A DNA stretch of 55,163 nt from an uncultured virus (IMG/VR IMGVR_UViG_3300028641_000003) (IMGVR_UViG_3300028641_000003), one strand, 5' to 3'; shown: positions 16,219-28,418, numbered from the stretch's first letter. Program-made: numbers and translations. Notes: generated by a model from the sequence alone, not told the origin.

Positions 16219-16252
16219 ATGTATTCCTTATTATACCGAGTTATTTATAGAA

Positions 16253-16338
16253 TGGTAGGGGCGACAGGAATTGCACCTGCACGGGATTTCTCCCACAACG
16301 TTCTAAGCGTTGCATGGCTGCTGTTACATCACACCCCC
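16253..16338 (-). tRNA. tRNA-Leu(TAG)
   Basis: CAACG-CTTAGAA-CGTTG, long variable arm, CCA. Confidence 0.88.
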
Positions 16339-16348
16339 ATGATTTATT

Positions 16349-16438
16349 TGGCGGAAGATGAGGGATTCGAACCCCCGGTACCCGTTAAGGTACTTCAAGT
16401 TAGTAACTTGCTGCTATAGACCACTCAGCCAATCTTCC
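16349..16438 (-). tRNA. tRNA-Ser(ACT), A34 anticodon
   Basis: Ser body (GGAAGAT acceptor, G73, long arm); loop TT-ACT-AA. Confidence 0.8.
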
Positions 16439-16441
16439 GGA

Positions 16442-16521
16442 TGGTCCCACTGCTATATCGTCTTATGCTGCGAATCGCTGCGATATTGCTTAATGTCCAG
16501 TTCGCTCGTACACAGTTGGGA
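16442..16521 (-). ncRNA. CCA-terminated non-cloverleaf RNA
   Basis: TCCCA.CTG/CAGTGGGA-CCA closing stem. Confidence 0.45.
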
Positions 16522-16536
16522 TGATACGCTGGACGC

Positions 16537-16620
16537 TGGTAGGCAAGGTGGGACTCGAACCCACAAAACGACCGTGTTTGAGACGGCAAACTGTGCCATT
16601 CGTTATAACGTCACTTGCCC
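16537..16620 (-). tRNA. tRNA-Leu(CAA), enlarged D region, short variable loop
   Basis: GCCGT-CTCAAAC-ACGGT, CCA. Confidence 0.8.
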
Positions 16621-16676
16621 ATGATCAATTTCGTTACTTTAGCGCAACGGAGTAAGAAATTGTAAGAAAGCCGTTT

Positions 16677-16810
16677 TGGTGTTGAGAGAAGGAGTTGCAC
16701 CTTCACAATACAGATTTTCTGTTTCCGTATTTCCTTTTATTCATAGGAAGTCTACTACAGATGTTACCTCTTCATAGGCAATCATTCGTTTCATTTAGTC
16801 ACTACTCAAC
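16677..16810 (-). ncRNA. Expanded Leu-like tRNA-like RNA
   Basis: GTTGAG/CTCAAC-ACCA acceptor, T arm, D-loop insertion; homologous to 16967-17084. Confidence 0.6.
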
Positions 16811-16816
16811 ATGAGA

Positions 16817-16943
16817 TGGTGCCCCGCCGCTGACACGCTCAGCTATTACGGAAGGTCTTTTACCTTTCTAACCCCTCAAATCCTTTCGGATGCTGGAGAG
16901 AAGTCTGCTGTCCCCTACGAGGACAGGTGAAGGTTGGCGGGGC
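16817..16943 (-). ncRNA. tRNA-like RNA with 8-bp acceptor and several hairpins
   Basis: GCCCCGCC/GGCGGGGC-ACCA. Confidence 0.55.
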
Positions 16944-16966
16944 GAGTTGTTTATCCAGCTTTGATT

Positions 16967-17084
16967 TGGTGTTGAGGGTAGGACTTGCACCTACATACTT
17001 GGATGCATGCTGGTCCAAGTTCCCTCTAAAACGAGGGTGCGTCTACTACGGGAATTGAACCCGCTCTTTCCGCCACTACTCAAC
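16967..17084 (-). ncRNA. Leu-like tRNA with hairpin inserted in D loop and non-7-nt anticodon loop
   Basis: GGCGGAA...GTAGACGC D arm, CCCTC/GAGGG, long variable arm, ACCA. Confidence 0.6.
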
Positions 17085-17085
17085 G

Positions 17086-17227
17086 TGGTGTCGATGGTAG
17101 GATTCGCACCTACACGCTCAAGCGTCCATGAGTTGTTTCCTTCTCATTTTTGCTAAGCCCCAGGTTTGGACCATGCTTTCGTTTAGGTCTTCAGCCCAGT
17201 CCGTCTGCTCGTTGCGGCACATACGAC
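17086..17227 (-). ncRNA. Leu-like tRNA with anticodon-loop and variable-arm insertions
   Basis: GTCG.ATG/CATCGAC-ACCA, T arm GTAGG/CCTAC. Confidence 0.55.
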
Positions 17228-17236
17228 AAGAAAACA

Positions 17237-17353
17237 TAAGTATGCTCGGGAGTCGAACCCGACATCATTGGGGTGCATGCAGCCCCTCCACCGTGGATAT
17301 GCATCTCTGCATACGGTAGGATTCGAACCTACTAGCGACCATCGACATACTTA
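17237..17353 (-). ncRNA. RNA with two T-arms inside one closing stem
   Basis: GTAGG-TTCGAAT-CCTAC and TCGGG-TTCGACT-CCCGA within TAAGTATG/CATACTTA. Confidence 0.55.
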
Positions 17354-17356
17354 CTT

Positions 17357-17430
17357 TGGCACATGGGGAGAGAATCGAACTCCCATCTTTGGGTTTGGAA
17401 TCCAAGGTACTACCATTGTACGACCCATGT
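17357..17430 (-). tRNA. tRNA-Trp(CCA)
   Basis: loop TT-CCA-AA, G73, CCA. Confidence 0.88.
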
Positions 17431-17438
17431 ATAAAATC

Positions 17439-17828
17439 TTTGTTGACCCATCCGGTGTGCTGTTACGCTAAAACGGTGGTTTGCTTTACTATCTATTATA
17501 CACCCACAATCACACATAATCCACTCGTGTGGACTTTGACGAGCAATAGATTGCTCTGCGTATGAAAGAGAGGCGGATTTCTTACGAAACCAATCTTACT
17601 CGCCTCACTCGGTGGGAACCCCATACTTGGAGTTGATGTGACAAGTTACTCATACGCTGGCTACAAGTGGTTCTCGGTCTTCCTTTTTATCGGCTGTCTT
17701 TATAGCTTGCTCTAAGGCTTGCTTTCAAGACTCCTTGTAGTAGTCGTATGCTTGCTCATTTCTATACAGCGCCCGTACTCTTTAAATGATGGCTGCTTCT
17801 AAGCCGACATTTCGGTTCGGTCAACAAA
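17439..17828 (-). ncRNA. ~390-nt RNA containing a split 23S rRNA H43-H44 (uL11-binding) mimic
   Basis: ATGTCGGCTTAGAAGCAGCCATCATTTAAAGAGT at the 5' side and GCGTAACAGCACACCGG at the 3' side; closed by TTTGTTGACC/GGTCAACAAA. Confidence 0.75.
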
Positions 17829-17901
17829 ACTTGAGGTTTCTTAAAGTCGCTTATCCTCTTGCGACATGACAGTTTCAACTCCAACTCTGTCAAAGGGAAA
17901 A

Positions 17902-18000
17902 TGGTGCGGGCGACAGGATTTGAACCTGCGATTTCTTGCTCCCTGGCAGTTACTATTAGGTAACTAAAGCAAGCGGAATACCAGACTTTCCTACACCCAC
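17902..18000 (-). tRNA. tRNA-Pro(TGG) with 22-nt GCCA-ended insert (17944-17965)
   Basis: Removing AGTTACCTAATAGTAACTGCCA gives CTTGC-TTTGGGA-GCAAG. Confidence 0.8.
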
Positions 18001-18032
18001 ATCAGAAACTATTATATCACATAAAAAGAAAA

Positions 18033-18107
18033 TGGTCTGGGCGGTTGGAGTCGCACCAACTTCTTCTCCCTTCCAAAAGGAGCCGTCTACTGTTGACCTA
18101 CGCCCAG
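18033..18107 (-). tRNA. tRNA-Pro(TGG)
   Basis: C1:G72, A73, loop TT-TGG-AA. Confidence 0.88.
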
Positions 18108-18108
18108 G

Positions 18109-18819
18109 TTATATTTCAATTCCAAGAATTTTACATCTTTTTCTTATTGCATTATCAGACACCCCGTATTTTACACCTATTTTAGTCATAGGCATTTTGC
18201 TAACATCATCCATTAACTGCTCTTTACTAACTTCAAATTTACGGCGTTTCTTACAAGAACATTTTAGACATTTATTGTTTTTATTTTTTGTTGTTACACA
18301 CCCACATTCGTCACAGTTATGTCTTTTTGCGTGATATTGTTTATTTTTACCAGAAAAAGTAGAAGTTTGAGAGTGGCAGTTTGGGCATAAGAAACATAGA
18401 TTTTCTATTCTGTTATCATTATGTATTCCATTCTTATGTTCTAATTGAAGAGTTATTATCTTACCCAACCATACTCCATTGTTCCCACAGCAACTACACT
18501 CGTATTTTAGTAATCCTTCATTGACCAATCTTTTTTTAAGATAATGTCTAGCGTATGATGAATTCTGGGTTAATACCTGTGATAATGGTTTCTTCTTGGC
18601 GTTAAATTTTCTACCTTTATTGGAACCTACGCCGAGTGCTATATGTGAAATATCTACTTTTTCTTCGATGCATCTATTTTTAATTGTCTTGTAATTTCCT
18701 CCTTTATTTTCCATTCCGACATATTTTAGTATTTCGCTTATAGTGTTAGATGATGCTACTAATCTAGCGAATTCTTCTTTTGGTATTTTCCAAATTATGC
18801 TTCTCTTTTTTCTTGTCAT
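18109..18819 (-). CDS. HNH homing endonuclease (paralog of 14869-15708)
   Basis: LQLEHKNG..NDNRIENLCFLCPNCHSQT; GVSDNAIRKRCK HTH shared with the paralog. Confidence 0.9.
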   Translation of the reverse strand: MTRKKRSIIWKIPKEEFARLVASSNTISEILKYVGMENKGGNYKTIKNRCIEEKVDISHIALGVGSNKGRKFNAKKKPLSQVLTQNSSYARHYLKKRLVNEGLLKYECSCCGNNGVWLGKIITLQLEHKNGIHNDNRIENLCFLCPNCHSQTSTFSGKNKQYHAKRHNCDECGCVTTKNKNNKCLKCSCKKRRKFEVSKEQLMDDVSKMPMTKIGVKYGVSDNAIRKRCKILGIEI

Positions 18820-18828
18820 ATATTCTCC

Positions 18829-18874
18829 TTATCGGTAGTATATTATACCATGTATTTATATATCCTACCGATAA
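18829..18874 (-). promoter_or_regulatory. Hairpin abutting the RBS with late promoter in its loop
   Basis: TTATCGGTAG/CTACCGATAA; TATAAATA 18853-18860. Confidence 0.75.
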
Positions 18875-18878
18875 AAAC

Positions 18879-18952
18879 TGGTTGGCTCACTAGGTTCTGC
18901 CCCTAGACTAAAACGTTCAAAGCGTTGTATGCTGCTGTTACATCATGAGCCA
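18879..18952 (-). tRNA. tRNA-Gln(TTG)
   Basis: TGG acceptor start, loop CT-TTG-AA. Confidence 0.85.
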
Positions 18953-18959
18953 ATGATAG

Positions 18960-19076
18960 TTGGGAGTGAGGGATTCGAACCCCCACAGAGAGATCCTGGC
19001 GACTGTTTATGGACTTGAACCACATTGTTTCCTATAACAATCAAAGTCTCTCGTCCTACCATTAGACGAACCCCCA
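18960..19076 (-). tRNA. tRNA-Gln(TTG) with 46-nt minihelix insert (18997-19042)
   Basis: Removal gives AGAGA-CTTTGGA-TCTCT; no encoded CCA. Confidence 0.8.
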
Positions 19077-19082
19077 ATGAAA

Positions 19083-19157
19083 TGGTTGGCACGGTAGGTG
19101 CTGCCCCTACTACGTCGGGTGTCAGAAACCCGCATTCTGCTGTTGAATTACGTGCCA
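19083..19157 (-). tRNA. tRNA-Gln(CTG)
   Basis: CGGGT-TTCTGAC-ACCCG. Confidence 0.88.
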
Positions 19158-19162
19158 GTAAC

Positions 19163-19600
19163 TTACTTCTTAATCGACTTAATCAACTTAGCAAACTTCC
19201 CAGGATTTACTGTGCATGCTTTTATGCCACCGAAGTAATCGGCAACATGGAAAGCAGCTACACATATCTCTGAGCATATCCACTTACTAGGATCTTCCTT
19301 TCTGAAGGGAAGAATCATGGAAAAGAAAATAGCTTTCCAGTCATATTTCTTATCTACTTGTGTCCAACAGAAAGCTTTAATCAACAATTCTTTTTCTGGT
19401 GGAACATCAACTTCAACTATATCCCAATGCTGATGGAAGTACATCTTATATGTAAATTGTGTCTTAAAGGGAGAAGTGAGAGAAGTCCCAAATGAGGAAC
19501 CGTCAGAAAATATAAGCTCGCAATGGGAATACTTTGAGAATGTCCAGAACTGGATGAGTCTGTCAAGTATTCCCGTTCCCTTTAAGAATGCAACTTTCAT
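19163..19600 (-). CDS. Permuted papain-like amidase (YiiX/C92-like)
   Basis: YSHCEL, KKYDW and KWICSE motifs. Confidence 0.75.
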   Translation of the reverse strand: MKVAFLKGTGILDRLIQFWTFSKYSHCELIFSDGSSFGTSLTSPFKTQFTYKMYFHQHWDIVEVDVPPEKELLIKAFCWTQVDKKYDWKAIFFSMILPFRKEDPSKWICSEICVAAFHVADYFGGIKACTVNPGKFAKLIKSIKK

Positions 19601-19637
19601 AGAGCCTCCATAAGTATTTATCCTACGGAGTAAAAAA

Positions 19638-19712
19638 TGGTGCCTGCCCCCGGTAACGCTCCGGGTTTGTCCGCTCTTCAGGCGGGTGCTTTACTATTTA
19701 AGCTAGACAGGC
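19638..19712 (-). tRNA. tRNA-Phe(GAA)
   Basis: loop CT-GAA-GA, A73. Confidence 0.85.
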
Positions 19713-19715
19713 ATA

Positions 19716-19786
19716 TGCAGGATAGAGGAATCGAACCTCTGACTCCGGCTTAACTGCCGGTGTGATAACCACTTCACCAATCCCGC
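19716..19786 (-). tRNA. tRNA-like gene with 6-nt anticodon loop (undetermined)
   Basis: Good acceptor, D and T arms; CCGGC-AGTTAA-GCCGG; no CCA. Confidence 0.6.
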
Positions 19787-19977
19787 TAGGTTTTTGCAGA
19801 ACCTTAACTGACTTTCTATCATTATAGTGGCGAAGATCATCCACTTTTAAGTAGCTTGGGGTACTACTTGTGTAGCATTCCGTAGCTAACGGAGATGCCC
19901 TTTACCAACCCTCTATAATTATTGTGGCGGGGATCGTCCACAGTAAAGCAGCTTTGAGCGTCCTCATTGCCCTATCA

Positions 19978-20048
19978 AGTATCATTACGGAATCGAACCG
20001 TTCCTCCCGCGTCATAAGCGGGTATGCATCCGTTACACCAAAGATACT
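19978..20048 (-). tRNA. tRNA with ATG (His, A34) anticodon
   Basis: CCCGC-TTATGAC-GCGGG; no encoded CCA. Confidence 0.65.
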
Positions 20049-20062
20049 CTTAGCTTCAAACT

Positions 20063-20139
20063 TGGCGACTCCAGTGGGGTTTGAACCCACGACCTATTGC
20101 GTGACAAGCAATTGCTCTCCCAGGCTGAGCTATGGAGCC
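20063..20139 (-). tRNA. tRNA-Asp(GTC)
   Basis: ATTGC-TTGTCAC-GCAAT, G73. Confidence 0.9.
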
Positions 20140-20143
20140 ATAA

Positions 20144-20218
20144 TGGCGGGTCTAGGGAGACTTGCGCTCCCCTTTTCGGATCGACAATCCGATATGTCGC
20201 TATCTACATTTTAGACCC
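20144..20218 (-). tRNA. tRNA-Asp(GTC)
   Basis: TCGGA-TTGTCGA-TCCGA, G73. Confidence 0.8.
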
Positions 20219-20335
20219 AAAAGACCACACCGTTTCTGCATTGTTAAGAGGCTGGTATGGTGCTACTGAACGACCACTCATGGTTGAGCATCTTAGAGAG
20301 GCTTGAGTGGGGCGGAGCCGTTTCATGCTCCTTAT

Positions 20336-20414
20336 TGGTGGGCAAGGTGGGAATCGAACCCGACCTCAACAACTTTATCAGAGTTGCACTAGCATACCAG
20401 CTAGACTCTTGCCC
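20336..20414 (-). tRNA. tRNA-Ile(GAT)
   Basis: CAACT-CTGATAA-AGTTG; bulged T stem. Confidence 0.82.
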
Positions 20415-20627
20415 AAAAATGTACCAACTTCACGCATCGGTCCATGAGCATTCAAATAAGGTTCTTCCATTGAAGGAAATGAATGATCTTATAGGAGACA
20501 GGGTGCTACCCTGGCTGAACAGCGGCGTTAAGGATCCCCTTCCGGGTCCAAGTGGATTTATTCTCCCCTCGACATGGAGATTTTGGTGGTGGATATATTT
20601 TAAGACCGCTACCGCCACACGGTCTGC

Positions 20628-20702
20628 TGGCACCCCAGGAAGGACTCGCACCTTTCATCTTCGGTTTCGTAGACCGACGTTCTTCTGTTATACTACCGGG
20701 GT
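20628..20702 (-). tRNA. tRNA-Arg(ACG)
   Basis: TCGGT-CTACGAA-ACCGA. Confidence 0.87.
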
Positions 20703-20709
20703 ATGAGAA

Positions 20710-20780
20710 TGGCAGGCAATCGTGGTGCTTACCCACGCTGATCTTCGTTCGAAGCGATGATTGCTCTCGGAGCATTGCCC
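20710..20780 (-). tRNA. Atypical compact tRNA-Arg(TCG)
   Basis: GGGCAAT/ATTGCCT-GCCA, loop CT-TCG-AA. Confidence 0.6.
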
Positions 20781-20791
20781 ATGAAAAAGAT

Positions 20792-20929
20792 TGTAGCAAG
20801 ACGGCTACATAAGCCGCATTCATCATCAAGATAACTACCCGTCCTGGGAACTTAATCGTGGGACTTCAACCCCCGTAGTTAGGCTCTTTATTTCCCCTTG
20901 ATGTGTCTTTATGTTTAGACGATTGCTAC
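20792..20929 (-). ncRNA. tRNA-like RNA with large anticodon-arm insertion
   Basis: GTAGCAA/TTGCTAC, D stem GTCT/AGAC, CATCAAG/CTTGATG. Confidence 0.5.
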
Positions 20930-20930
20930 T

Positions 20931-21118
20931 TGGTGGGGGAGGTTGGATTCGAACCAACATGCCTCATCGGAACTTATCAGTTAAGTCCCACGCCTTACGC
21001 TCGTTGGGTAATTACTCCGTATGAGCATCGTGGGTTGAATTCTCTATTGTGAGTAACGTTATCTCTCACAGAAAATTCGTTTGTTCAACGAGTCGCTTTG
21101 CCATTAGCGTACTCCCCC
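20931..21118 (-). ncRNA. 188-nt Tyr-like tRNA scaffold with ~100-nt insertion
   Basis: GGGGGAG/CTCCCCC-ACCA, normal D and T arms. Confidence 0.65.
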
Positions 21119-21169
21119 AAAAGATGAAGGTTGCTTGCGTTAGTGGAAGCGAGCCTACAAACCTACGCA

Positions 21170-21243
21170 TGGTGGGCAATAAGGGAATCAAACCCCTGTA
21201 TTCTGAACGTCAATCAGATGTTCTATCATTGAACTAATCGCCC
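21170..21243 (-). tRNA. tRNA-Val(GAC)
   Basis: TCTGA-TTGACGT-TCAGA. Confidence 0.87.
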
Positions 21244-21246
21244 ATA

Positions 21247-21280
21247 AATCAAACTACGCTATAGAGTTGTTAAACGAAGC
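21247..21280 (-). promoter_or_regulatory. boxA-like + AGCGTAGTTTG motif preceding tRNA runs (copies at 22698, 29242, 30145, 30638)
   Basis: YTTYACAA-like N7-9 AGCGTAGTTTG repeated five times, each just 5' of a tRNA. Confidence 0.65.
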
Positions 21281-21372
21281 ATTCGCTTCGTGGCTCTACT
21301 ATAAGAGGTCTTCTGTGTAATACAATAGGAGCGACACACATACATCAGGAGTGTATCACACAGAAGCTTTGC

Positions 21373-21461
21373 TGGCGGAATCACACTGAATCGAACAGTC
21401 CAGACCTTCAAGCCTGGGGACGGCTTTCGAAACCGATTGAACACCTTGTTCCCGTGACTCC
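21373..21461 (-). tRNA. 8/4 allo-type tRNA-Ser(CGA)
   Basis: 8-bp acceptor GGAGTCAC/GTGATTCC, 4-bp T stem, long arm, G73. Confidence 0.78.
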
Positions 21462-21468
21462 AAAACTT

Positions 21469-21561
21469 TGGCGGATAGAGAGGGATTCGAACCCCCGGTG
21501 CCCGTTAAAAGGCACTTCGGTTTTCAAAACCGACGCAATCGACCTACTCTGCCATCTATCC
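21469..21561 (-). tRNA. tRNA-Ser(TGA)
   Basis: TCGGT-TTTGAAA-ACCGA, G73. Confidence 0.9.
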
Positions 21562-21565
21562 ATGC

Positions 21566-21952
21566 CTACATCCATAATCTACCTAATCTTTTTTCAAATA
21601 GCTTTTGAGCCTTTAAAAACATCTTTGCGTCCTCCGCACATAAAGATGGATATACTTGAGGTTTCTCTTTACTAGGAAGACGAGTAACAGTGGAGAAGCC
21701 ATCTATCATTGCCTTCAAGTCCCTGACAAGTTTCTTGTCTTGCTTATCATCTGGATGCATCTTATGAAGATACATCTTGAGACGAGGAACTATCCAGCTA
21801 CAAAAGGCAACATCCAAGTTTATTATTTCTTCGGCTCGGATTGCTTTGTTGCTCACGATATCATCAGCGAGTTTGAGAAGGCTCTCATTTTTTTCTCTGA
21901 GCTTCTCGTTTTCTTCTTCGAGTTGCTTGATGTATATCTTTTCCTGTGTCAT
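21566..21952 (-). CDS. Hypothetical protein
   Basis: 128 aa; NLD..F..WI.PRL motif; own sigma70-like promoter. Confidence 0.65.
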   Translation of the reverse strand: MTQEKIYIKQLEEENEKLREKNESLLKLADDIVSNKAIRAEEIINLDVAFCSWIVPRLKMYLHKMHPDDKQDKKLVRDLKAMIDGFSTVTRLPSKEKPQVYPSLCAEDAKMFLKAQKLFEKRLGRLWM

Positions 21953-21986
21953 ACACCTATTATAACTATGGTATATGATATATCAA

Positions 21987-22076
21987 TGGTGGAGTAAGGA
22001 GTAATCGAAACTCTGCCCCCTTGCGGCGACCTTTCGCTTTCCAGGCGAACGCATCTCCCCGATGCTTCTCTACTCC
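21987..22076 (-). tRNA. 8/4-type tRNA-Ser(GGA)
   Basis: Bulged 8-bp acceptor, 4-bp T stem, TTCGC-CTGGAAA-GCGAA, A73. Confidence 0.72.
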
Positions 22077-22082
22077 ATGAAA

Positions 22083-22364
22083 TTAACCGCCAAGTATCTT
22101 ATCAAAATCAAACTTATCTTTGATAAACTTATGAAAAAACTGACCTTTACTTGGTGAAAATTTAAATTTATCTTTTAAGAATCTTGATATGTTGTTATAA
22201 GCATATACTACAGAAGGGTCGCCTTCAAACCTAATATACAATATTTTTTTCTTACGTGAATATCCAGATTGGATAATAGCAGTCGAATCAACATTTGTTG
22301 GTGTTAAATTGGCTTCTTCAAGTTTCTTCCAAGTTTCTTGGAGATGTTTATGAATATTATCCAT
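22083..22364 (-). CDS. KTSC-domain protein
   Basis: VDSTAI...GY...LYIRF...YAY.....SPSKGQFFHKFIK; start re-called after TATAAATA. Confidence 0.8.
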   Translation of the reverse strand: MDNIHKHLQETWKKLEEANLTPTNVDSTAIIQSGYSRKKKILYIRFEGDPSVVYAYNNISRFLKDKFKFSPSKGQFFHKFIKDKFDFDKILGG

Positions 22365-22383
22365 GTATTCATATTTATAAAAT

Positions 22384-22457
22384 TGGTGCTGCTCCAAGGA
22401 ATCGAACCTTGTTTCCCTACATACCAAGCAGGTGTAATACCAGTATACTAGAGCAGC
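22384..22457 (-). tRNA. tRNA-Thr(GGT)
   Basis: CCTGC-TTGGTAT-GTAGG. Confidence 0.87.
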
Positions 22458-22462
22458 ATAAG

Positions 22463-22602
22463 ACCAGAGAAGAGATTGGGAGCAACAGTGTTTTTGCCGC
22501 TCTGCCGTTGAGCTACCTCACCGTTTGTGGTGAGGGTAGGATTCGAACCTACATCCTGCTCCTTATAATGGAAGTAACCGTCACAATGACTACTTCTCTG
22601 GT
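22463..22602 (-). ncRNA. YrlA-like Y RNA (permuted T arm - closed acceptor - D arm on a long stem)
   Basis: GTAGG-TTCGAAT-CCTAC, CCTCACC-acaaac-GGTGAGG, TAGCTCAACGGCAGAGC inside CCAGAGAAG/CTTCTCTGG. Confidence 0.7.
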
Positions 22603-22604
22603 TT

Positions 22605-22695
22605 TGGTGGAAGGTGGGAGAATCGAACTCCATTCCCATTAAAGGGAACAATTTCTTTAGCAAAGAATTCCAGTACCACACTGGTTCTACCTTCC
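22605..22695 (-). tRNA. 8/4-type tRNA-Ser(GCT) with Sec-like D arm
   Basis: GGAAGGT(A)G/CACCTTCC, 6-bp D stem, 4-bp T stem, loop TT-GCT-AA. Confidence 0.72.
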
Positions 22696-22722
22696 ATAAT
22701 CAAACTACGCTTATAATGTTGT

Positions 22723-22759
22723 AAAAAGAAAAACCCCGACTTTTTGAGTCAGGGTTTTC
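22723..22759 (-). terminator. Attenuator terminator of tRNA block 2
   Basis: AAAACCCTGACT-CAAAA-AGTCGGGGTTTT-TCTTTTT. Confidence 0.85.
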
Positions 22760-22787
22760 AGAGGGTGCCTATTTTTAGGTCTTTCTC

Positions 22788-22892
22788 TTACTTACCTGAC
22801 TCCTGAGTAATAAAATCAGAGAGACGGCGACTCGACAACCATGATGGTTGGAGTTGCTGGACTGGCTGATGGGTGGGTAGGAGGTTAATCAT
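22788..22892 (-). CDS. Leader peptide 2 MINLLPTHQPVQQLQPSWLSSRRLSDFITQESGK
   Basis: Lies between late promoter (22906-22913) and terminator; its GAGTCAGG is complementary to the terminator 5' arm. Confidence 0.75.
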   Translation of the reverse strand: MINLLPTHQPVQQLQPSWLSSRRLSDFITQESGK

Positions 22893-22994
22893 AATGTTCT
22901 ATCTTTATTTATATGCGTATTCTAACATGTCCTGAGAAAAATACAATAAGTATTTTTACCATTGCGTAGTTTGTAATGTTTATAAGGACTTACA

Positions 22995-23270
22995 TCAACT
23001 TTCCGAAAGGTCATCTTGAACTTCTTTACGAATAACTTCTTCGAGAAGACCATGCTCATCCTTCCACTTGGAAGCACAGCCAGGAATCTTATGCCCGTGG
23101 CATAACCCGCAGTCAGTACGACCACAGTCACAGGGATGCTTGACGGCAAGCCTATTTTTTTCATTTTCAAAATACTTAACTCGTTTCTTATCCGTTTCCT
23201 TCAAAAACTTTAAACGGTTGTCTGCAACTCGTTTCGTCTGTGATCTGCGCCATACTCGACTGCGTTTCAT
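22995..23270 (-). CDS. Small basic Cys-rich protein
   Basis: AAGGAG RBS; HPCDCG..CGLC motif. Confidence 0.7.
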   Translation of the reverse strand: MKRSRVWRRSQTKRVADNRLKFLKETDKKRVKYFENEKNRLAVKHPCDCGRTDCGLCHGHKIPGCASKWKDEHGLLEEVIRKEVQDDLSES

Positions 23271-23294
23271 GTAATTCTCCTTGTTAATAAAGCT

Positions 23295-23369
23295 TGGTGC
23301 TACTTGAGAGATTTGAACTCCCGACCTTCTGTTTACAAAACAGATACACTACCACTGTGTTAAAGTAGC
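23295..23369 (-). tRNA. tRNA-Thr(TGT)
   Basis: TCTGT-TTTGTAA-ACAGA. Confidence 0.9.
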
Positions 23370-23373
23370 ATAA

Positions 23374-23448
23374 TGGTGCCCCCACCACGACTCTCACATG
23401 GCTTTCCGGAGTACAAAACCGGTGTGTCGATATCTACACTTTAGGGGC
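23374..23448 (-). tRNA. tRNA-Thr(TGT)
   Basis: loop TT-TGT-AC; atypical T loop. Confidence 0.78.
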
Positions 23449-23480
23449 ATATGCCTCCCACTGAAGGGAGGTCTTGTAAT

Positions 23481-23810
23481 TTACTTCAAAAGCGACAGCT
23501 TACCGAAAATAGCTTTGGACACTTCGTTGTCGATGGGTTCAAAAGCAGTTGCGGTTTCTGCGTTAGACATATCGGGTTCTATGAAGGTGGTGTATGATAA
23601 CTCCATTCTGTCATAGAGTGCCTTTATGCTTGCAATTTCGTTATCCGTTGCGGAGAGAAGAATCATTGTCTTGTGGTTGTTCACCCAATCAATGACTTTG
23701 GGCTTCTGTCCGTGTTGTGCCATAAACTCGGCAGCCGCGTGGCTACTCTGTACAGCACAATGAGTTAACGGAAGTATATCTCGTCTGATGAGGATGAACA
23801 TCTTAAGCAT
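23481..23810 (-). CDS. Peptidyl-tRNA hydrolase, Pth2-like
   Basis: KMFILIRRD...AVQSSHAA..W...K..ILL...F.EPD....TA.AFEP...KLSLL; GGAGG RBS. Confidence 0.8.
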   Translation of the reverse strand: MLKMFILIRRDILPLTHCAVQSSHAAAEFMAQHGQKPKVIDWVNNHKTMILLSATDNEIASIKALYDRMELSYTTFIEPDMSNAETATAFEPIDNEVSKAIFGKLSLLK

Positions 23811-23814
23811 TTTG

Positions 23815-24201
23815 CTATATACCTCCGGTGCCACAGGCACACTCGGGTATGAGAGCATCTTGTTTCTCCTTGACGTAATCTTCCATTCTCTTACGAATGA
23901 TTTCAGAAGACTGAACATATTCTTTTTCTCTCTCTTCGTTTAAGTGGCACTTACCACGAACCTGTCCATACGCTATATGCATACAAGTAGTCCGGTACTT
24001 ATCGTTGCGGATTGCGTTCTCTGCACACCACCAGTATTTTTCACCTGATGTATCGTAGGGGTAGGCATTGCCTGGAAGTCCAGTTGATGCACTACGCTGG
24101 TTGCGGCGTAAAGCCTGTTTGTTGTGAGCAAGTCTCTCAGCGAGAGTCTTGATTTCGCTGCGGAAAAATTCCATTGCGAGTTTATGTTGGGTTATATCCA
24201 T
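23815..24201 (-). CDS. Hypothetical protein co-transcribed with Pth2
   Basis: 128 aa; R..HIAYG..RG-type motif. Confidence 0.7.
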   Translation of the reverse strand: MDITQHKLAMEFFRSEIKTLAERLAHNKQALRRNQRSASTGLPGNAYPYDTSGEKYWWCAENAIRNDKYRTTCMHIAYGQVRGKCHLNEEREKEYVQSSEIIRKRMEDYVKEKQDALIPECACGTGGI

Positions 24202-24253
24202 GATTTTATTCCTTAAGGTTGATTGTTGAGTTTACGAACTACAGACAATCAGC

Positions 24254-24301
24254 TTATGGAGGACCACGAATCAGCTACCCATACTCTTTGTTCTAACGCA
24301 T
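24254..24301 (-). promoter_or_regulatory. Leader ORF MR*NKEYG*LIRGPP* with two in-frame UAGs
   Basis: AAGAAAGGA RBS; final TAA lies in the 5' arm of a hairpin reaching the next RBS. Confidence 0.65.
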
Positions 24302-24333
24302 AGCTATCCTTTCTTGTTGAGGTTAATACGACA

Positions 24334-24409
24334 TGGTGCTTCCGGTGGGATTTTAACCCACAACCAAGCGGTTTAGAATCGCTTGCTCTTTCATTTGAGC
24401 TACGGAGGC
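24334..24409 (-). tRNA. Amber suppressor tRNA (CTA)
   Basis: AGCG(A)-TTCTAAA-(C)CGCT, intact cloverleaf, ACCA. Confidence 0.8.
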
Positions 24410-24414
24410 ATGAA

Positions 24415-24489
24415 TGGTGCCCATCTCTGGTAACGCTCCAGATTCTCTACGATACGAATGTAGTGCATCGCTTTTAATGCTTGATGGGC
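24415..24489 (-). tRNA. tRNA-Thr(CGT)
   Basis: loop TT-CGT-AT. Confidence 0.8.
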
Positions 24490-24493
24490 AAAA

Positions 24494-24568
24494 TGGTCGT
24501 GGTGGTGGGAATCGAACCCACTAGGAGCGGCTTATGAAACCGCCGTCCATCCATTGAACTTCACCACG
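24494..24568 (-). tRNA. tRNA-Met/Ile2(CAT)
   Basis: GCGGT-TTCATAA-GCCGC. Confidence 0.82.
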
Positions 24569-24571
24569 AGA

Positions 24572-24835
24572 CGGGGTATGTTATTTCTTACATCTGCATA
24601 CACCCCATGATATGCGGACTTCGATGTTACCTATAATAGATCCCTGACTTTGGCTTAGGGGGAGTAACATTTCCTCTAAGCCCACTGGCTTTTTGATAGG
24701 GTCAACCAGATGGGTAATAATTAGTAGGACAGTCACATGGCATGAGTAATGGGCAACCTAACTTGCCACCATGAATTACACTGAACTCTTTTTACGGGAA
24801 AGATAACCCATCATGTAAGTGTTACATCAACCCTA
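24572..24835 (-). ncRNA. Unassigned ~260-nt structured RNA
   Basis: Ends pair (CTTACAT/ATGTAAG, GGG/CCC); internal GGCTTAG/CTAAGCC. Confidence 0.4.
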
Positions 24836-24854
24836 CATTTGCCTTGCGGCTATA

Positions 24855-24929
24855 TGGCACCCAAACTAGGACTTGCACCTAGAAGAATTCTTTAGGAAAG
24901 AATCAGTTTTCTATTTAGCTTATTCGGGC
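24855..24929 (-). tRNA. tRNA-Arg(CCT)
   Basis: ATTCT-TTCCTAA-AGAAT. Confidence 0.82.
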
Positions 24930-25237
24930 ATGATGAGGAAGCTTCGGGTGTATTCTATAGAATAGAAAACTTGTCCGAAGCGTCTATGCGGTTAGAAGAG
25001 TCCTCTTTCTCTACTAACTGTTCGCGATCCTAAACTCGTATCTCGGTCGTTACTCTCGGAGCCGCATATAAAGTGTCATTTAGGACACGAGTCCACTTTA
25101 CAGGAAGTTCCGTGAGTTGTTCATAGGAACTTCAGCTAATAACCCGTTTCAGTATGACCACATGGTGGTTCAAACCATATTTCTATGGCTACTTAACGAG
25201 CCAACCATATCAACTCATTCCGGTTGGGTTTGAGAAA

Positions 25238-25300
25238 GAGCCGAGATTAATCGCAACGGTGTGTTTTTCCAAAGAAGTAACCGTTACATGACTGCGGTTC
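25238..25300 (-). ncRNA. Minimal Y-like RNA (same stem family as 22463-22602)
   Basis: GCAGTCA.GTAACGGTTACTTC...AAACAC.CCGTTGC...AATCTC. Confidence 0.6.
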
Positions 25301-25454
25301 AGGTGGTAATAGTATTCACTACAAGATTCGTTGGGCATTCCTATGCCTATCTTAGAACCTTCCACTCTCTCTGTGGCAATACTATTGGTAAGATGACAGG
25401 AGCTTCATATACTCTACTGTCTTTAAAAGTGTCTGTCCGACACTTATATGAAGG

Positions 25455-25540
25455 TGGAATCGCACGGGGGAGTCGAACCCCGGACCTTAACAGTTTTGCA
25501 GACTGCTCCCAGAAACCCTCTGAGATGAAGGGCATGCGAT
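25455..25540 (-). tRNA. 8/4-type tRNA-Cys(GCA), selC*-like
   Basis: ATCGCATG/CGTGCGAT, U73, 4-bp T stem, 6-bp D stem. Confidence 0.75.
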
Positions 25541-25838
25541 TATGCTGTGATACTTTCAAGAAAGCTATATCCTTGCCCACCAACACTGTTGGCTACTCAG
25601 ACCTCTCTTGTTGCTTGTCACCCCTTAGTATCATAGAGGCTCGCTTAACGTTTGGGACCGTTTTCCAGATGAAAGACTGGTATGTACTTGCAGCGATTTC
25701 GCAATCCTTTGCGGTTTCACTTGCTCCAGATAAAGACCGCCTTTCACCTTCTAGTGGCGCGGCAATAATCTTCAAGTATTGCAAGAATCCCCTTCAATCC
25801 TTGTACAGTCACAAGTAGTCCTTTTTCAAGGGACGAGT

Positions 25839-25914
25839 TGGTGCAGGTTGTCGGAATCGAACCGACGCCTTCTGATTGGAAGTCAGGCATGCTACCACTG
25901 GACACCAAACCTGC
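25839..25914 (-). tRNA. tRNA-Gly(TCC)
   Basis: loop CT-TCC-AA. Confidence 0.87.
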
Positions 25915-25919
25915 ATAAA

Positions 25920-26031
25920 TGGTGCGCCGGGATGGAATTTAACCACCTTCCCCCTTAACTTACAGGCAACTCGCTACGCGCAGCTTGCTGCTAGTTTTTT
26001 GTAAGGCGCTCTAACGATGAGCTACCAACGC
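25920..26031 (-). ncRNA. tRNA scaffold with ~40-nt anticodon-arm insertion
   Basis: GCGTTGG/CCGGCGC-ACCA, GCTC/GAGC D stem. Confidence 0.55.
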
Positions 26032-26036
26032 ATATT

Positions 26037-26210
26037 TTTCTGTGTGTCTTCCATCCTTTTCTTTTAAGTGTTCTGACCAAACTTCGTCTCACACACCTTC
26101 CTGTTTCAAGGCACTCAATGACATAAGTATAGCCAAGTTAAGAGGAATGGACTTAGGGTTACGGATTGTCATATCTCAAACCAGAAGTAATGGGACATTC
26201 GTCACAGAAA
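26037..26210 (-). ncRNA. Y-like RNA with GNCGAANG motif
   Basis: TTTCTGTG-ACGAATG...TTACTTC...CACAGAAA. Confidence 0.45.
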
Positions 26211-26212
26211 AT

Positions 26213-26287
26213 TGGAGCAGTGTAAGGGAATTGAACCCTTGTATCCAGCTTGGAAGGCTGGCACATAAGCCTCTCTGTCAACACTGC
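26213..26287 (-). tRNA. tRNA-Gly(TCC)
   Basis: CCAGC-CTTCCAA-GCTGG, U73. Confidence 0.88.
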
Positions 26288-26494
26288 ATAGGATCTACTA
26301 TACGCGAGCTAGTAGATGTTTTATTTCTTTCTTTGAATACCACTCATCGTCCCTCGCATCGTAATGGGTGATATGAAATTTAGGCTACTTGGGAATCTTG
26401 TTCGCAAAGGAACCACCCGATGCTACTAGAGACTCCTGTTCACACAGGGTACTTACTCGCCGCAACTGGTTAGGAATTAGCTTTCAATACCGTT

Positions 26495-26614
26495 TGGCTG
26501 GAAAGAAGGGATTCGAACCCCTGACCTAGTGATTATGGTGATGAGCGTAAGAGTTGAACTTACTGATTCCTTTGCCCATTACAGTCACTTGCACTACCGC
26601 TGTGCTACTTTCCA
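26495..26614 (-). tRNA. tRNA-Asn(GTT) with 45-nt minihelix insert (26536-26580)
   Basis: Removal gives AGTGA-CTGTTAA-TCACT; G73. Confidence 0.83.
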
Positions 26615-26620
26615 ATGATT

Positions 26621-26718
26621 TGGCGTTCCCGGTAGGATTTGAACCTACGACCATTGGATTATGGCAGTGATTTGTTAATCACCGAAATCCAAAGCTCTTC
26701 CAACTGAGCTACGAGAAC
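26621..26718 (-). tRNA. tRNA-Arg(TCT) with 22-nt microhelix insert (26662-26683)
   Basis: Removal gives TTGGA-TTTCTAA-TCCAA; A20 present. Confidence 0.83.
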
Positions 26719-26721
26719 ATG

Positions 26722-26800
26722 TGGCACCCATGGTAGGAGTTGAACCTACATGTATCCAGTTAGCTTTCTCCTGCTTAGAAGGCAGGCGGCATACATGGGC
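26722..26800 (-). tRNA. D-arm-less tRNA-Arg(TCT)
   Basis: CCTGC-CTTCTAA-GCAGG; D-loop-like TGGATA in the variable region. Confidence 0.72.
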
Positions 26801-26811
26801 ATGAAGAAATC

Positions 26812-26875
26812 GGGGAGATTAGGAGTTACGGTGTTTTGTTTCATAAGGTGAAGTAACCGTAACAATGACTGCCCC
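26812..26875 (-). ncRNA. Minimal Y-like RNA
   Basis: GGGGCAGTCATTGTTACGGTTACTTC...AAACACCGTAAC...AATCTCCCC. Confidence 0.6.
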
Positions 26876-26883
26876 AAAGGATT

Positions 26884-27001
26884 GTGTTAGCATAGGGGGA
26901 TTCGAACCCAGGCAACATAAGTCGCCTGTTTTACCCGCATGACATTTTAGTGACCGCTATTTGCAGTCTGTCGGATCTACCGCTGAGCTACACGCTAACA
27001 C
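26884..27001 (-). ncRNA. Cys-like tRNA scaffold with insertion, no CCA
   Basis: TAGCTCAGCGGTAGA D loop, CTGCAAA, GGG-TTCGAAT-CCC. Confidence 0.45.
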
Positions 27002-27105
27002 GAAAAGGTGAGTCTCTAGTAGGCTGGCGAGAGGCTACGATGGTTAGTCGTATAAGCGACCTGAAAAAGTCGCTCCACGTTCACTACTAGGCACCCGAAT
27101 TAAAT

Positions 27106-27140
27106 TGGTGGACAGAATTACCTTTTACGATTAGCTGCCC
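27106..27140 (-). ncRNA. Free-standing Ala-type microhelix
   Basis: GGGCAG/CTGTCC-ACCA, G3:U70. Confidence 0.5.
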
Positions 27141-27190
27141 GATCCTAATCAACCATTGTTAGATGGGGAAATGGTATCGAATAACCCCTT

Positions 27191-27266
27191 TGGTGGACAC
27201 AAAGGGAGTCGAACCCTTCACAGATGCATTGCAAGTGCGTCTCGCCCCCACGGAACATGTGTGCCC
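27191..27266 (-). tRNA. tRNA-Ala(TGC)
   Basis: G3:U70, loop CT-TGC-AA. Confidence 0.85.
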
Positions 27267-27330
27267 AAAAATGGTGAAGCTGGTTTCTTTTTATGAGTGA
27301 AACACTTTGCCTCTAACAAAAGTTCTCGTA

Positions 27331-27406
27331 TGGTGGAATGATCCGGCTACGCTCCGGACGCCTCCTGCGTGCAAGGCAGGCGCTCTACTGAATGAGCTAT
27401 CACCCC
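27331..27406 (-). tRNA. tRNA-Ala(TGC)
   Basis: CCTGC-CTTGCAC-GCAGG, G3:U70. Confidence 0.88.
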
Positions 27407-27487
27407 ATGGAAAGCTATATGTTTCTTTTTGTTGACAGGGAAAGAAACTTGTAGAGTCGCTTAGCTTCTACTAGAAAGAACCCACGA

Positions 27488-27563
27488 TGGATGCGGTGGG
27501 CTGGACTTGCACCAGCGATTCCCGCCTTATGAGGGCGGTGAGATGCTACTTCTCTACCCCGCA
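27488..27563 (-). tRNA. tRNA-Met(CAT), initiator-like
   Basis: CCGCC-CTCATAA-GGCGG. Confidence 0.8.
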
Positions 27564-27595
27564 ATGCTGAAGGTTATTAGATACCTACAAACTTT

Positions 27596-27669
27596 TGGAA
27601 GCGCAGAAAGGAGTCGCACCTTTATCTATTGGTTATGAGCCAATTATGCTACTGTTACACCACCGCGCA
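27596..27669 (-). tRNA. tRNA-Met(CAT), initiator-like (1:72 mismatch)
   Basis: ATTGG-CTCATAA-CCAAT. Confidence 0.82.
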
Positions 27670-28418
27670 GTGTTAATACGAATTCTACCCTTTACAAATC
27701 CCATTTCTATATATTTGTTTATGTCATTTTTATTTATTCTAAAACATTCACCAGTTTGAAGATTCTTCACCCATATGAGTTGAGAATATATTTTACCATA
27801 TCTCTCTTTCATAGTGTTTGATAAGTTTTCTCTTGTTTCTTTCGATGACATTCTTTCTTTCATTTTTTGTGAAAGTAATGTCTTAGTTTCGTTACTTCCA
27901 CATTCACTCTCTTTTTTGTATCTTTCTTTTACTGATAATGAGATTTTGTTTCTTACCTCATCATTTATATATCTTTTCTTTGCTCTATCTGACATTTTCT
28001 TTCTCGTTTCATCTGATATAATTCTTGTCTTATTAGTATCTATCATTTTTTGTTTTGATTCTTTCGAGTAGGTTTTTGGTTTCTGACTTATTATGGAGAG
28101 CTTTCTTTTTGTCTCATCAGTGTGATTCTTTCCTCTAAACTTTGGTCCACCTTCGCCACCAACTGATATGTTATAAACATCTTTTCTTTTTATAAAATCT
28201 TCATTCACAATAAGTATTTCCATTTTATCCATTTGCTCTTCGTTGTCAAAAACATGGAGTATTTCTTTTGTAAAGTTACTTCTCCCATATTTCTTAACGG
28301 CAGCCTTTATATGATGTCCGGAACCTAAGTAATCATCGTTGATATTTTCGGTTTGGTGCTTCCCAATGTAAATCTTACCGTTTATCTTATTAGTTATCTT
28401 GTATATGGTATAAAACAT
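27633..28418 (-). CDS. GIY-YIG homing endonuclease, SegB-like with NUMOD3 repeats
   Basis: TIYKITNKINGKIYIGKH, YLGSG, YNI..GG, HTDETKRKLS; 3' end overlaps tRNA-Met; start re-called at AGGAG RBS. Confidence 0.9.
   Translation of the reverse strand: MFYTIYKITNKINGKIYIGKHQTENINDDYLGSGHHIKAAVKKYGRSNFTKEILHVFDNEEQMDKMEILIVNEDFIKRKDVYNISVGGEGGPKFRGKNHTDETKRKLSIISQKPKTYSKESKQKMIDTNKTRIISDETRKKMSDRAKKRYINDEVRNKISLSVKERYKKESECGSNETKTLLSQKMKERMSSKETRENLSNTMKERYGKIYSQLIWVKNLQTGECFRINKNDINKYIEMGFVKGRIRINTARWCNSSIIGS

Follow-up and report, generated by a model that had tools for sequence, protein, structure and literature searches.

Four tRNA genes in a 55,163-nucleotide stretch of DNA from an uncultured virus (IMGVR_UViG_3300028641_000003), referred to here in its entirety as the window, are interrupted within the anticodon by inserts that resemble the acceptor-like stem of a tRNA, in two cases together with a T arm, and that end in NCCA. 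We tentatively favor, at somewhat less than an even chance, the interpretation that these inserts are intervening sequences of a family that mimics the tRNA top half, and that they are removed by tRNA end-processing cuts followed by sealing with an Rnl1 ligase of the phage. The interrupted genes and their inserts are listed below; positions written as 34/35 lie between nucleotides 34 and 35 of the tRNA, lengths are in nucleotides (nt) or base pairs (bp), and scores are those of the Rfam tRNA model.

17902..18000, minus strand: tRNA-Pro(UGG) gene, split at 34/35, with its own encoded 3′ ACCA; 50.7 bits
17944..17965, minus strand: Pro insert, 22 nt; 6-bp hairpin AGTTAC/GTAACT with a 6-nt loop CTAATA, then GCCA; context TTT-insert-GGGA
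18960..19076, minus strand: tRNA-Gln(UUG) gene with U1:A72, split at 35/36, the boundary being ambiguous by one G; 48.8 bits
18997..19042, minus strand: Gln insert, a 46-nt mini-tRNA; 7-bp acceptor-like stem GATTGTT/AACAGTC, 11-nt linker ATAGGAAACAA, T arm TGTGG TTCAAGT CCATA (T loop TTCAAGT), tail GCCA; context CTTT-insert-GGA
26498..26614, minus strand: tRNA-Asn(GUU) gene, split at 35/36, with a 3′ GCCA that reaches 26495; 57.3 bits
26536..26580, minus strand: Asn insert, a 45-nt mini-tRNA; stem (A)ATGGGC/GCTCAT(C), 10-nt linker AAAGGAATCA, T arm GTAAG TTCAACT CTTAC, tail ACCA; context CTGT-insert-TAA
26621..26718, minus strand: tRNA-Arg(UCU) gene, split at 35/36, the sole UCU gene seen in the array; 59.0 bits
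26662..26683, minus strand: Arg insert, 22 nt; 7-bp hairpin GGTGATT/AATCACT with loop AACA, then GCCA; context TTTC-insert-TAA
17092..17227, minus strand: tRNA-like stretch around a possible fifth insert, called by neither ARAGORN nor Rfam, with a predicted fold that is not a cloverleaf

A preliminary description of this DNA had placed the four inserts at these positions, and both the sequence and the placement of surplus bases by Rfam bore this out to the base on the minus strand. The tRNA model matched all four genes over their full length above the 29-bit cut-off, leaving surpluses of 22, 45, 22 and 46 bases within the anticodon loop. The first base of the helix is the 5′ end of each insert and the 3′ end lies four bases beyond the helix, these four bases being GCCA, GCCA, ACCA and GCCA for Pro, Gln, Asn and Arg. 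The Pro and Arg inserts are plain hairpins without a T arm; the Gln and Asn inserts, each made of a 7-bp stem, an AGGAA-containing linker of 10–11 nt and a canonical T arm, amount to a tRNA top half. In the predicted fold of the Arg gene the cloverleaf is kept, with the insert hairpin branching off the anticodon loop. The possible fifth case, at 17167-17189, was not confirmed; it has only a 4-bp stem and CA, though its flanks would yield a GAA loop. Other long tRNA-like genes in the window (26031-25923, 21118-20931 and 17351-17235) also deviate from the pattern of a stem followed by NCCA.

When introns were allowed, ARAGORN called the Pro gene Leu-tag, the Gln gene Gln-ttg and the Asn gene Tyr-gta; the Arg gene was called Pro-cgg with no intron and a long arm. 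Because the program picked other cut points, the anticodon depends on the boundary that is chosen, and gene identity needed a separate test. The exons of eight interrupted genes, the four in the window and four in a related phage genome (G011, described below), were joined computationally by the stem-to-NCCA rule and compared with a library of 151 uninterrupted tRNAs from the window, G011, G020, G009, G005, G012, L245 and L242. The nearest library tRNA was of the predicted isotype for four of the eight genes (Pro and Gln of the window, Thr and Gly of G011), and this isotype was among the top six for seven of them, being absent only for the Gln gene of G011. For the joined Gln exons of the window the nearest relative was Gln(ttg) of G020. 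The D and T arms of the window Arg gene were close to those of Arg(tct) of G020; the Arg(UCU) gene of G011 is itself interrupted.

We also aligned the uncut genes with insert-free homologues. A single clean gap equal to the predicted insert was obtained in 6 of 11 alignments, covering five of the eight genes, and the remaining five alignments were fragmented. The window Pro gene showed one 22-nt gap against Pro(tgg) of both L245 and G020, with identical anticodon arms on both sides, and the window Asn gene showed one 45-nt gap against Asn(gtt) of L245. The clean pairs for G011 were Arg with Arg(tct) of G020, Thr with Thr(tgt) of G020, and Gly with the window Gly(tcc) gene at 26213-26287. The Pro and Asn boundaries are therefore settled, and the identities that ARAGORN had given to these genes (Leu or Thr for Pro, Tyr for Asn) are ruled out. 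Thus the earlier statement that exact removal restores a 7-nt loop with a fitting anticodon holds for Pro and Asn on the strength of insert-free homologues; for the other two genes the identities Gln (loop CTTTGGA, U1:A72) and Arg(UCU) are likely, as judged from sequence comparison.

The restored loop was always 7 nt. In every case the insert opened with the first base of a helix, and its 3′ boundary fell 2–4 bases beyond a helix; since both boundaries shift relative to the tRNA body, from 34/35 to 36/37, no ruler from the body sets them. The Gln insert lies at 35/36 in the window and at 34/35 in G011, with removal from stem to NCCA giving the identical loop CTTTGGA in both. Rfam scores of the interrupted tRNAs (42–59 bits) were within the range of uninterrupted ones, and the interrupted tRNAs appear functional.

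The same insert-bearing DNA was found at 99.97–100% identity in other assemblies (G001 and loci L008 and L244), so the inserts are not an assembly artefact. In seven of the eight inserts of the window and G011, CCA stands exactly where a 7-nt loop is restored (P = 3e-6, allowing eight frames per gene), a placement that is beyond chance. One could still suppose that the inserts are chance resemblances, mis-assemblies or decaying pseudogenes, the array having the three irregular genes noted above that do not follow the pattern. With identical DNA in several assemblies, the same design in a phage whose baseplate protein is 42% identical, the compensatory changes described below and the CCA placement all against it, we find this scarcely credible.

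Interrupted genes of this kind were found in related phages through a baseplate protein that had 57 homologues at 38–91% identity, some of them on contigs of 300–400 kb. Thirty-two loci were fetched from viral contigs and 19 records were searched for tRNAs, five of which contained any. Among these searched relatives long tRNA matches occurred in G011 only (332 kb), in 4 of its 25 tRNAs. Another genome, G022 (345 kb), had two long matches among 41 tRNAs.

G011 Gln(UUG): 46-nt mini-tRNA insert with an ACCA tail, at 34/35
G011 Arg(UCU): 48-nt insert with a TCCA tail, at 36/37
G011 Gly(UCC): 35-nt insert with a 6-bp stem and an ACCA tail, at 36/37
G011 Thr(UGU): 45-nt mini-tRNA insert with the tail AA, not NCCA
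G022 Leu(UAA): 79-nt insert
G022 Arg(UCU): 82-nt insert

The four interrupted G011 genes are the sole Gln, Thr, Gly and Arg(UCU) genes among the 25 tRNAs detected there. None of them encodes its own 3′ CCA, and three of their four inserts carry CCA. In both G022 inserts a hairpin and a linker come first and are followed by the tRNA-like part. Alignment of the G022 Leu insert with insert-free Leu genes gave it the tail ACC, the exon providing the A that completes CCA, and the G022 Arg insert has the tail ACGT. NCCA-ended inserts, for which the preliminary description had suggested searching other phage tRNAs, were present in three of the four G011 genes and not in G011 Thr or the two G022 genes. 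All three inserts that lack a T arm (22, 22 and 35 nt) have kept the stem and NCCA. GenBank phages yielded nothing closely related to the array or to the Gln insert, and loci retrieved with the PTH2 protein belonged to the same phage or fell short of the four interrupted genes. A 142-nt ‘intron’ tRNA called by ARAGORN in L242 proved spurious.

The Gln inserts of the window and G011 are mutual closest relatives and differ at 11 of 46 positions. Nine of these differences are in stems, where they amount to three double compensatory changes and three changes of the G-U type with no pair broken; the other two are one linker base and one discriminator base. Both inserts came from the tRNA search, with no pairing filter applied. 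To judge by these substitutions, the insert fold is under selection.

We built a covariance model, R1, from both Gln inserts and one free-standing copy; the family consists of a 7-bp stem, an AGGAA-containing linker, a 5-bp T stem with a 7-nt T loop, and the 3′ strand of the stem. R1 scored 64.6 bits on the window Gln insert, a training sequence, and 25.3 bits (E = 3.5e-4) on the window Asn insert, which was not used in training. It recovered the Asn insert and the Thr and Arg inserts of G011; the Pro and Arg hairpins of the window did not match. An R1 search of the window gave no free-standing copies, and a search of the 22 records G001–G022 at E ≤ 0.1 gave nothing new, the matches being the known Gln inserts and two weak ones in G009. 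Among 12 aligned members 97.2% of cells paired, versus 56.0 ± 3.3% in shuffled alignments (none of 500 reached the observed value) and 35–44% in slid controls, where seven of the 12 members had been chosen for pairing and the alignment had been fitted to the model.

Copies of the same architecture also occur outside tRNA genes. An exhaustive scan of viral contigs for TATAGGAA followed by 8–9 bases and GTTCRANTC returned 58 stretches. In 12 of these both the 5-bp T stem and the 7-bp outer stem were perfectly paired, where we estimate that chance would give well under one; five of the 12 were known embedded copies and seven were free-standing, with no overlapping ARAGORN tRNA gene. A further free-standing group, L069 and three near-copies, was among the matches listed of another scan. 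The free-standing mini-tRNAs (L069, L206, L211, L215, L221, L232, L238 and L239) are 46–50 nt long and have the 7-bp stem, the TATAGGAA linker and the T arm. They come from unrelated phages, with several copies in or beside tRNA arrays and, in at least two records, within the array. No tRNA match longer than 91 nt was present among 44 in five phage records with free-standing copies. Their tails were ACAA, ACAC, ACAT, AAAT, CGCC, CCCA and ACCA. Enrichment of CCA in embedded over free-standing copies was not significant (7 of 10 versus 2 of 7, P = 0.15); a count of eight of nine that gave P = 0.035 had omitted the G022 Arg insert and was discarded. We found no Rfam family for the mini-tRNA copies of the window. 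Since free-standing copies exist, the mini-tRNA is an independent gene in some phages, and in the jumbo-phage group it is a nested element.

The free-standing copies bring in a different reading of the inserts, namely that a nested or mobile mini-tRNA gene landed in anticodon loops and the tRNA halves are never re-joined. The host tRNA would then either be a dead gene or serve as a carrier that confers tRNA-like processing and stability on the insert. One possible route is that a mature CCA-ended RNA was ligated into a nuclease-cut anticodon loop and copied back into DNA. Besides the seven of 12 well-paired matches and the L069 group, several of them near tRNA arrays, this reading draws on insert ends that are those of mature RNAs, including the partial ACC in G022. 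It also accommodates positions that range from 34/35 to 36/37, and loop restoration follows automatically. Between the window and G011 Gln genes, identity is higher in the inserts (35 of 46 positions) than in the exons (40 of 71), and the Gln gene of G020, the source of the tRNA nearest the window Gln gene, is uninterrupted. This contrast points to spread of the element, or to a stronger constraint on the element than on the tRNA. A reverse transcriptase was found in none of the four phage records searched for enzymes (see below), however, and the tRNA bodies are free of decay, with the G011 interrupted genes being the only ones found for three amino acids. Moreover, the grouping of inserts follows the host tRNA (Gln with Gln) rather than the phage, and the 22-nt hairpins retain the stem and GCCA. 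Such hairpins cannot be working mini-tRNAs because they have no T arm or linker, and inserts without a T arm that keep the stem and NCCA are hard to explain for a mere passenger gene. We regard the mobile-gene reading as rather unlikely.

In the splicing pathway that we tentatively favor, the insert, with its acceptor-like stem, NCCA and in some cases a T arm and a D-loop-like AGGAA linker, would have to be removed before the tRNA could decode. Host RNase P would take the insert for the 5′ end of a tRNA and cut at the first base of the helix, leaving a 3′-OH on the 5′ half. A 3′-end maturation nuclease would then cut 2–4 nt past the helix, in the window right after CCA, leaving a 5′-phosphate on the 3′ half. 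The halves would be held together by the tRNA body while a phage ligase of the T4 Rnl1 family sealed the anticodon loop; with a 5′-phosphate left by the second cut, the nick would be of the kind that T4 Rnl1 naturally seals. The released by-product would be a minihelix or mini-tRNA ending in CCA. Bacterial RNase P, whose RNA base-pairs with CCA, classically needs no more of a substrate than a helix and a 3′ RCCA, and by sequence all four window inserts have the features of such a substrate (an acceptor-like helix of ~4–12 bp, a single-stranded 5′ flank and RCCA). Enzymes that cut exactly after an encoded CCA include Thermotoga RNase Z and E. coli RNase BN.

Enzymes for such a pathway were sought in four phage records, two of them fragments. 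An Rnl1-family ligase (PF09511) is encoded by the window phage (records G001 and G021) and by G011. The Rnl1 of the window phage is a 412-amino-acid open reading frame at L162 1282-2520 in G001, ~39 kb before the start of the window. About 3 kb from it in G001, L168 722-2858 encodes an RNA ligase (PF09414) between two calcineurin-like phosphoesterases, adjoining a ClpS-like gene; this second RNA ligase with two phosphoesterases is present in both the window phage and G011. All four records contain a CCA-adding enzyme. The ligases that the preliminary description had named did not withstand inspection: the open reading frame at 38631-42521 has no ligase domain, its matches being to CTP_transf_like (cytidylyltransferase-like) and, weakly, to SppA only, and RtcB was found in none of the four records.

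Several results weigh against splicing by end-processing enzymes. Loop restoration proves the boundaries of the unit and not splicing, because insertion without target duplication predicts the same; the case for removal therefore rests on the intact tRNA bodies, the unduplicated G011 genes, the identical Gln loop obtained from two positions, and the conserved stem with NCCA. Strict NCCA is present in 7 of the 10 embedded inserts, and the exceptions (AA, ACC and ACGT for G011 Thr, G022 Leu and G022 Arg) contradict a cut after CCA as the general rule that had been proposed; because the tails vary, a fixed cut of this sort cannot explain all members. In the G022 inserts and those of the Lak megaphages discussed below, a hairpin and linker precede the tRNA-like part, so that one RNase P cut at the 5′ end of that part would leave the exon still attached to them. 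The second cut is the weak point, with no RNase Z-like gene, variable tails and a leader that needs a further cut. An RNase Z-type gene (PF12706, Lactamase_B_2) and a phage RNase P RNA of bacterial type A were each found in none of the four records, and G022 had no Rnl1. In the part of the literature available to us, Rnl1 and repair enzymes are described as common in jumbo phages for other reasons (PMC7824862). Uninterrupted Pro(UGG) and Asn(GUU) genes are also present in the window, so the interrupted copies could be dispensable. Of the read data, five runs contained 7–22% of the sampled words and four were examined as assembled contigs. No splice joint at the four inserts was among the joints listed, and contigs cannot show that a spliced form is absent, so that these data speak neither for nor against splicing. 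A contig from run X3, probably DNA, was colinear through the whole Gln insert, and an X1 RNA-library contig (26351-26565) extended just 30 bases into the Asn insert without bridging it. We conclude that splicing is a reasonable hypothesis with circumstantial support, and that as originally worded it is not general, so that the claim is supported in part.

The variable tails (NCCA, AA, ACC and ACGT) and the 5′ hairpin of the G022 and Lak inserts would fit an enzyme that reads structure better than a pair of end-processing enzymes. The inserts would then be true introns cut by a dedicated phage endonuclease that recognizes the insert helix, with the phage ligases repairing the break and RNase P playing no part. 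The two phosphoesterases beside the RNA ligase suggest healing of cyclic-phosphate ends, and the endonuclease would be among the many HNH, GIY-YIG and PD-(D/E)XK proteins or those without an assigned function. No enzyme was singled out among these candidates, however, a tRNA splicing endonuclease domain was not found in the four phage records, and NCCA in seven of the eight inserts of the window and G011 is left unexplained. On balance a dedicated endonuclease appears unlikely.

Position 34 is U in seven of the eight interrupted genes of the window and G011, Asn(GUU) being the exception, versus 17 of 52 uninterrupted genes (Fisher P = 0.005). U34 tRNAs, queuosine-type tRNAs and Arg tRNAs are classical targets of anticodon nucleases. 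The interrupted genes might accordingly serve as a guarded reserve or a decoy, the split loop being invisible to host anticodon nucleases and the tRNA being matured on need or titrating nucleases or end-modifying toxins. This is a statement of purpose that can be combined with either splicing model, and the phage does carry a set of RNA repair genes. The U34 association is purely correlative and from a small sample, and uninterrupted Pro and Asn copies lie alongside the interrupted ones; we consider a reserve or decoy function quite improbable.

The U34 bias together with the mature-like ends suggests, as speculation, an origin in which a free mini-tRNA became ligated into an anticodon loop that a nuclease had cut. 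A broader possibility, which we regard as doubtful, is that bacterial viruses have a third, protein-only splicing route, and that the same chemistry run in reverse inserts a free mini-tRNA into a nuclease-cut loop, an event that would then be fixed in DNA. Reversed ligation would explain the origin of the introns, the CCA and ACC ends, the wandering position in the anticodon and the U34 preference.

The window is part of the genome of a jumbo myovirus and carries baseplate genes, a ribonucleotide reductase and several DNA methylases. The closest record, G001 (113 kb, rated 37% complete), was identical to the window across the compared stretch. The tRNA array extends from ~14.2 to 30.7 kb of the window on the minus strand and contains 35 tRNA genes by ARAGORN, or 38 tRNA matches plus a transfer-messenger RNA by Rfam over threshold; a PTH2 peptidyl-tRNA hydrolase and homing endonucleases of the HNH and GIY-YIG types lie between the tRNAs. 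By a loose test, CCA is encoded after 34 of 38 ARAGORN calls in the window.

Other features of the array do not belong to the set of inserts. A tRNA of the amber-suppressor type with anticodon CUA (‘Pyl’ in ARAGORN) is encoded at 24334-24409 on the minus strand, and the related locus L243 has two; despite this tRNA, the long open reading frames of the window are open under the standard code. A segment of ~40 nt at 17769-17810 (minus), between tRNA-Trp and the interrupted Pro gene, matches positions 1098-1143 of the bacterial 23S rRNA model with 23 bits. When reads were mapped to it, this segment had very high depth and loose ends on both sides, which looks like foreign rRNA reads matching a phage fragment. 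An abiF RNA motif matched at 20273-20310 (minus, 41.6 bits versus a gathering score of 37) within the array.

The array also contains a group of irregular tRNA-like genes on the minus strand (19167-19086, 18955-18876, 16338-16253 and ~16680-17350). They mostly end in ACCA, have the D loop AAC(G)AGCAG and the T loops GGCAGMA or TGCRANT, and several were missed by both ARAGORN and Rfam. Two of them adjoin the interrupted Gln gene and, by eye, have UUG- and CUG-like loops. At 21118-20931 (minus) lies a 188-nt tRNA-like gene with acceptor GGGGGAG/CTCCCCC and ACCA, in which ~115 extra bases fold as three helices; ARAGORN called it Gly-tcc with an intron, and it has no counterpart in L242, where the flanks align at 79–88% identity. 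A tRNA match of 38.4 bits at 26031-25923 (minus) has ~37 extra bases in the anticodon loop that include no clean stem and no CCA, and no frame yields U33; it is a different or decayed sort of interruption. Alignment of these two genes, of 17351-17235 and of the stretch around 17167-17189 to the 151 library tRNAs gave no resolution.

To our knowledge, the only introns that bacteria and their viruses are thought to have in tRNA genes are self-splicing, and tRNA introns that are short and depend on proteins are taken to be a hallmark of archaea and eukaryotes. The introns of Lak megaphages hinted otherwise in 2019 and, in what we have seen of that report, were left unexplained (PMC6784885). The window provides the smallest and cleanest examples so far, down to a 22-base hairpin with GCCA inside an anticodon, along with insert-free homologues for comparison and a candidate ligase in the same genome. 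If the inserts are spliced, they would constitute a new class of intron and give RNase P and Rnl1 a new job. Phage annotation would also be affected, since standard tRNA finders misname or miss such genes (ARAGORN gave Thr or Leu, Tyr and Pro-cgg, and found Gln only in its intron-tolerant setting), as would the reading of phage tRNA sets in studies of codon usage and anti-defence. Should splicing not occur, the mini-tRNAs, both free-standing and nested, would still be an undescribed family of phage small RNAs.

Comparison with known systems sets the inserts apart from the established classes of tRNA intron, as had been proposed. Group I introns in bacterial and phage tRNAs likewise interrupt the anticodon loop and often come with homing endonucleases, of which this array has many, but they are self-splicing ribozymes with a core (P3–P9) of ~200 nt or more, whereas the window inserts are 22–46 nt; no group I, group II or other intron family was among 62 Rfam matches at E ≤ 1 in 14000-31000. 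The bulge-helix-bulge introns of archaea and eukaryotes are likewise short and protein-dependent, the archaeal ones also occur at non-canonical positions, and their exons are ligated. No bulge-helix-bulge with a central 4-bp helix can be drawn for the window inserts, however, and the splicing endonuclease (PF01974), like RtcB, is absent from the four phage records. Instead, both splice sites border one helix, that of the insert, the 5′ site directly and the 3′ site at a distance of 4 nt, and the predicted folds have an asymmetric internal loop (1 nt versus 4 nt in Arg). Nor are these introns at 37/38, as the positions are 34/35 (Pro) and 35/36 (Gln, Asn and Arg), those of Pro and Asn being fixed by the alignments with and without the insert. 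We also rejected an integration scar, in which a tRNA 3′ end is displaced at an att site: each insert has a complete, two-stranded stem that bears no relation to the acceptor stem of the host tRNA, and no foreign DNA lies between insert and exon.

Two further systems resemble individual steps of the proposed pathway. Where mascRNA is released from MALAT1 by RNase P and RNase Z, and where tRNAs punctuate mitochondrial transcripts, both cuts in the longer RNA are set by a tRNA mimic within it, through tRNA end-processing enzymes. The flanks there stay unjoined, whereas the halves of the window tRNAs would need to be joined inside the anticodon. In the T4 PrrC/Pnkp/Rnl1 system a host nuclease cuts the anticodon loop of a tRNA and the phage repairs it; the break is sealed by an Rnl1-type ligase, which the window phage and G011 also have. 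Nothing is removed in T4, whereas in the window a segment would first have to be excised.

The closest likeness is to the Lak megaphages, whose tRNA introns were called enigmatic and previously unreported in phages (Devoto et al. 2019, PMC6784885). In the parts of that study available to us, one intron ‘may itself encode a tRNA’, with a true boundary one base off the 37/38 prediction, and no mechanism is proposed. The Lak inserts (79–140 nt, with boundaries that are the authors’ 37/38 predictions) consist in its Table S6 of a hairpin, an A-rich linker and a tRNA-like part (a 7–8-bp stem and T arm) followed by ‘ca’ or ‘cta’. Full-text literature searches returned no later work on the mechanism of Lak-type introns, nor did the jumbo-phage reviews as far as they could be consulted, including PMC7824862, and the term ‘intron’ was not found in a survey of huge phages (PMC7162821). 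By eye against Table S6, the Gln and Asn inserts are likewise non-ribozyme anticodon-loop inserts with a 3′ stem and T arm. They differ from the Lak introns, as far as these are described there, in lacking the 5′ hairpin and A-rich linker: the window inserts begin at the stem, are 22–46 nt long, carry a terminal NCCA and interrupt the anticodon triplet itself, and two of them have no T arm. The G022 Leu insert bridges the two groups, having the leader CAGAGTAAACTGT in common with one Lak intron and the TATAGGAA mini-tRNA in common with the window family. Because it joins both features, the window-family and Lak inserts are of one broad kind, and those of the window are a minimal new variant of a phage tRNA interruption for which our searches turned up a single report and no explanation.

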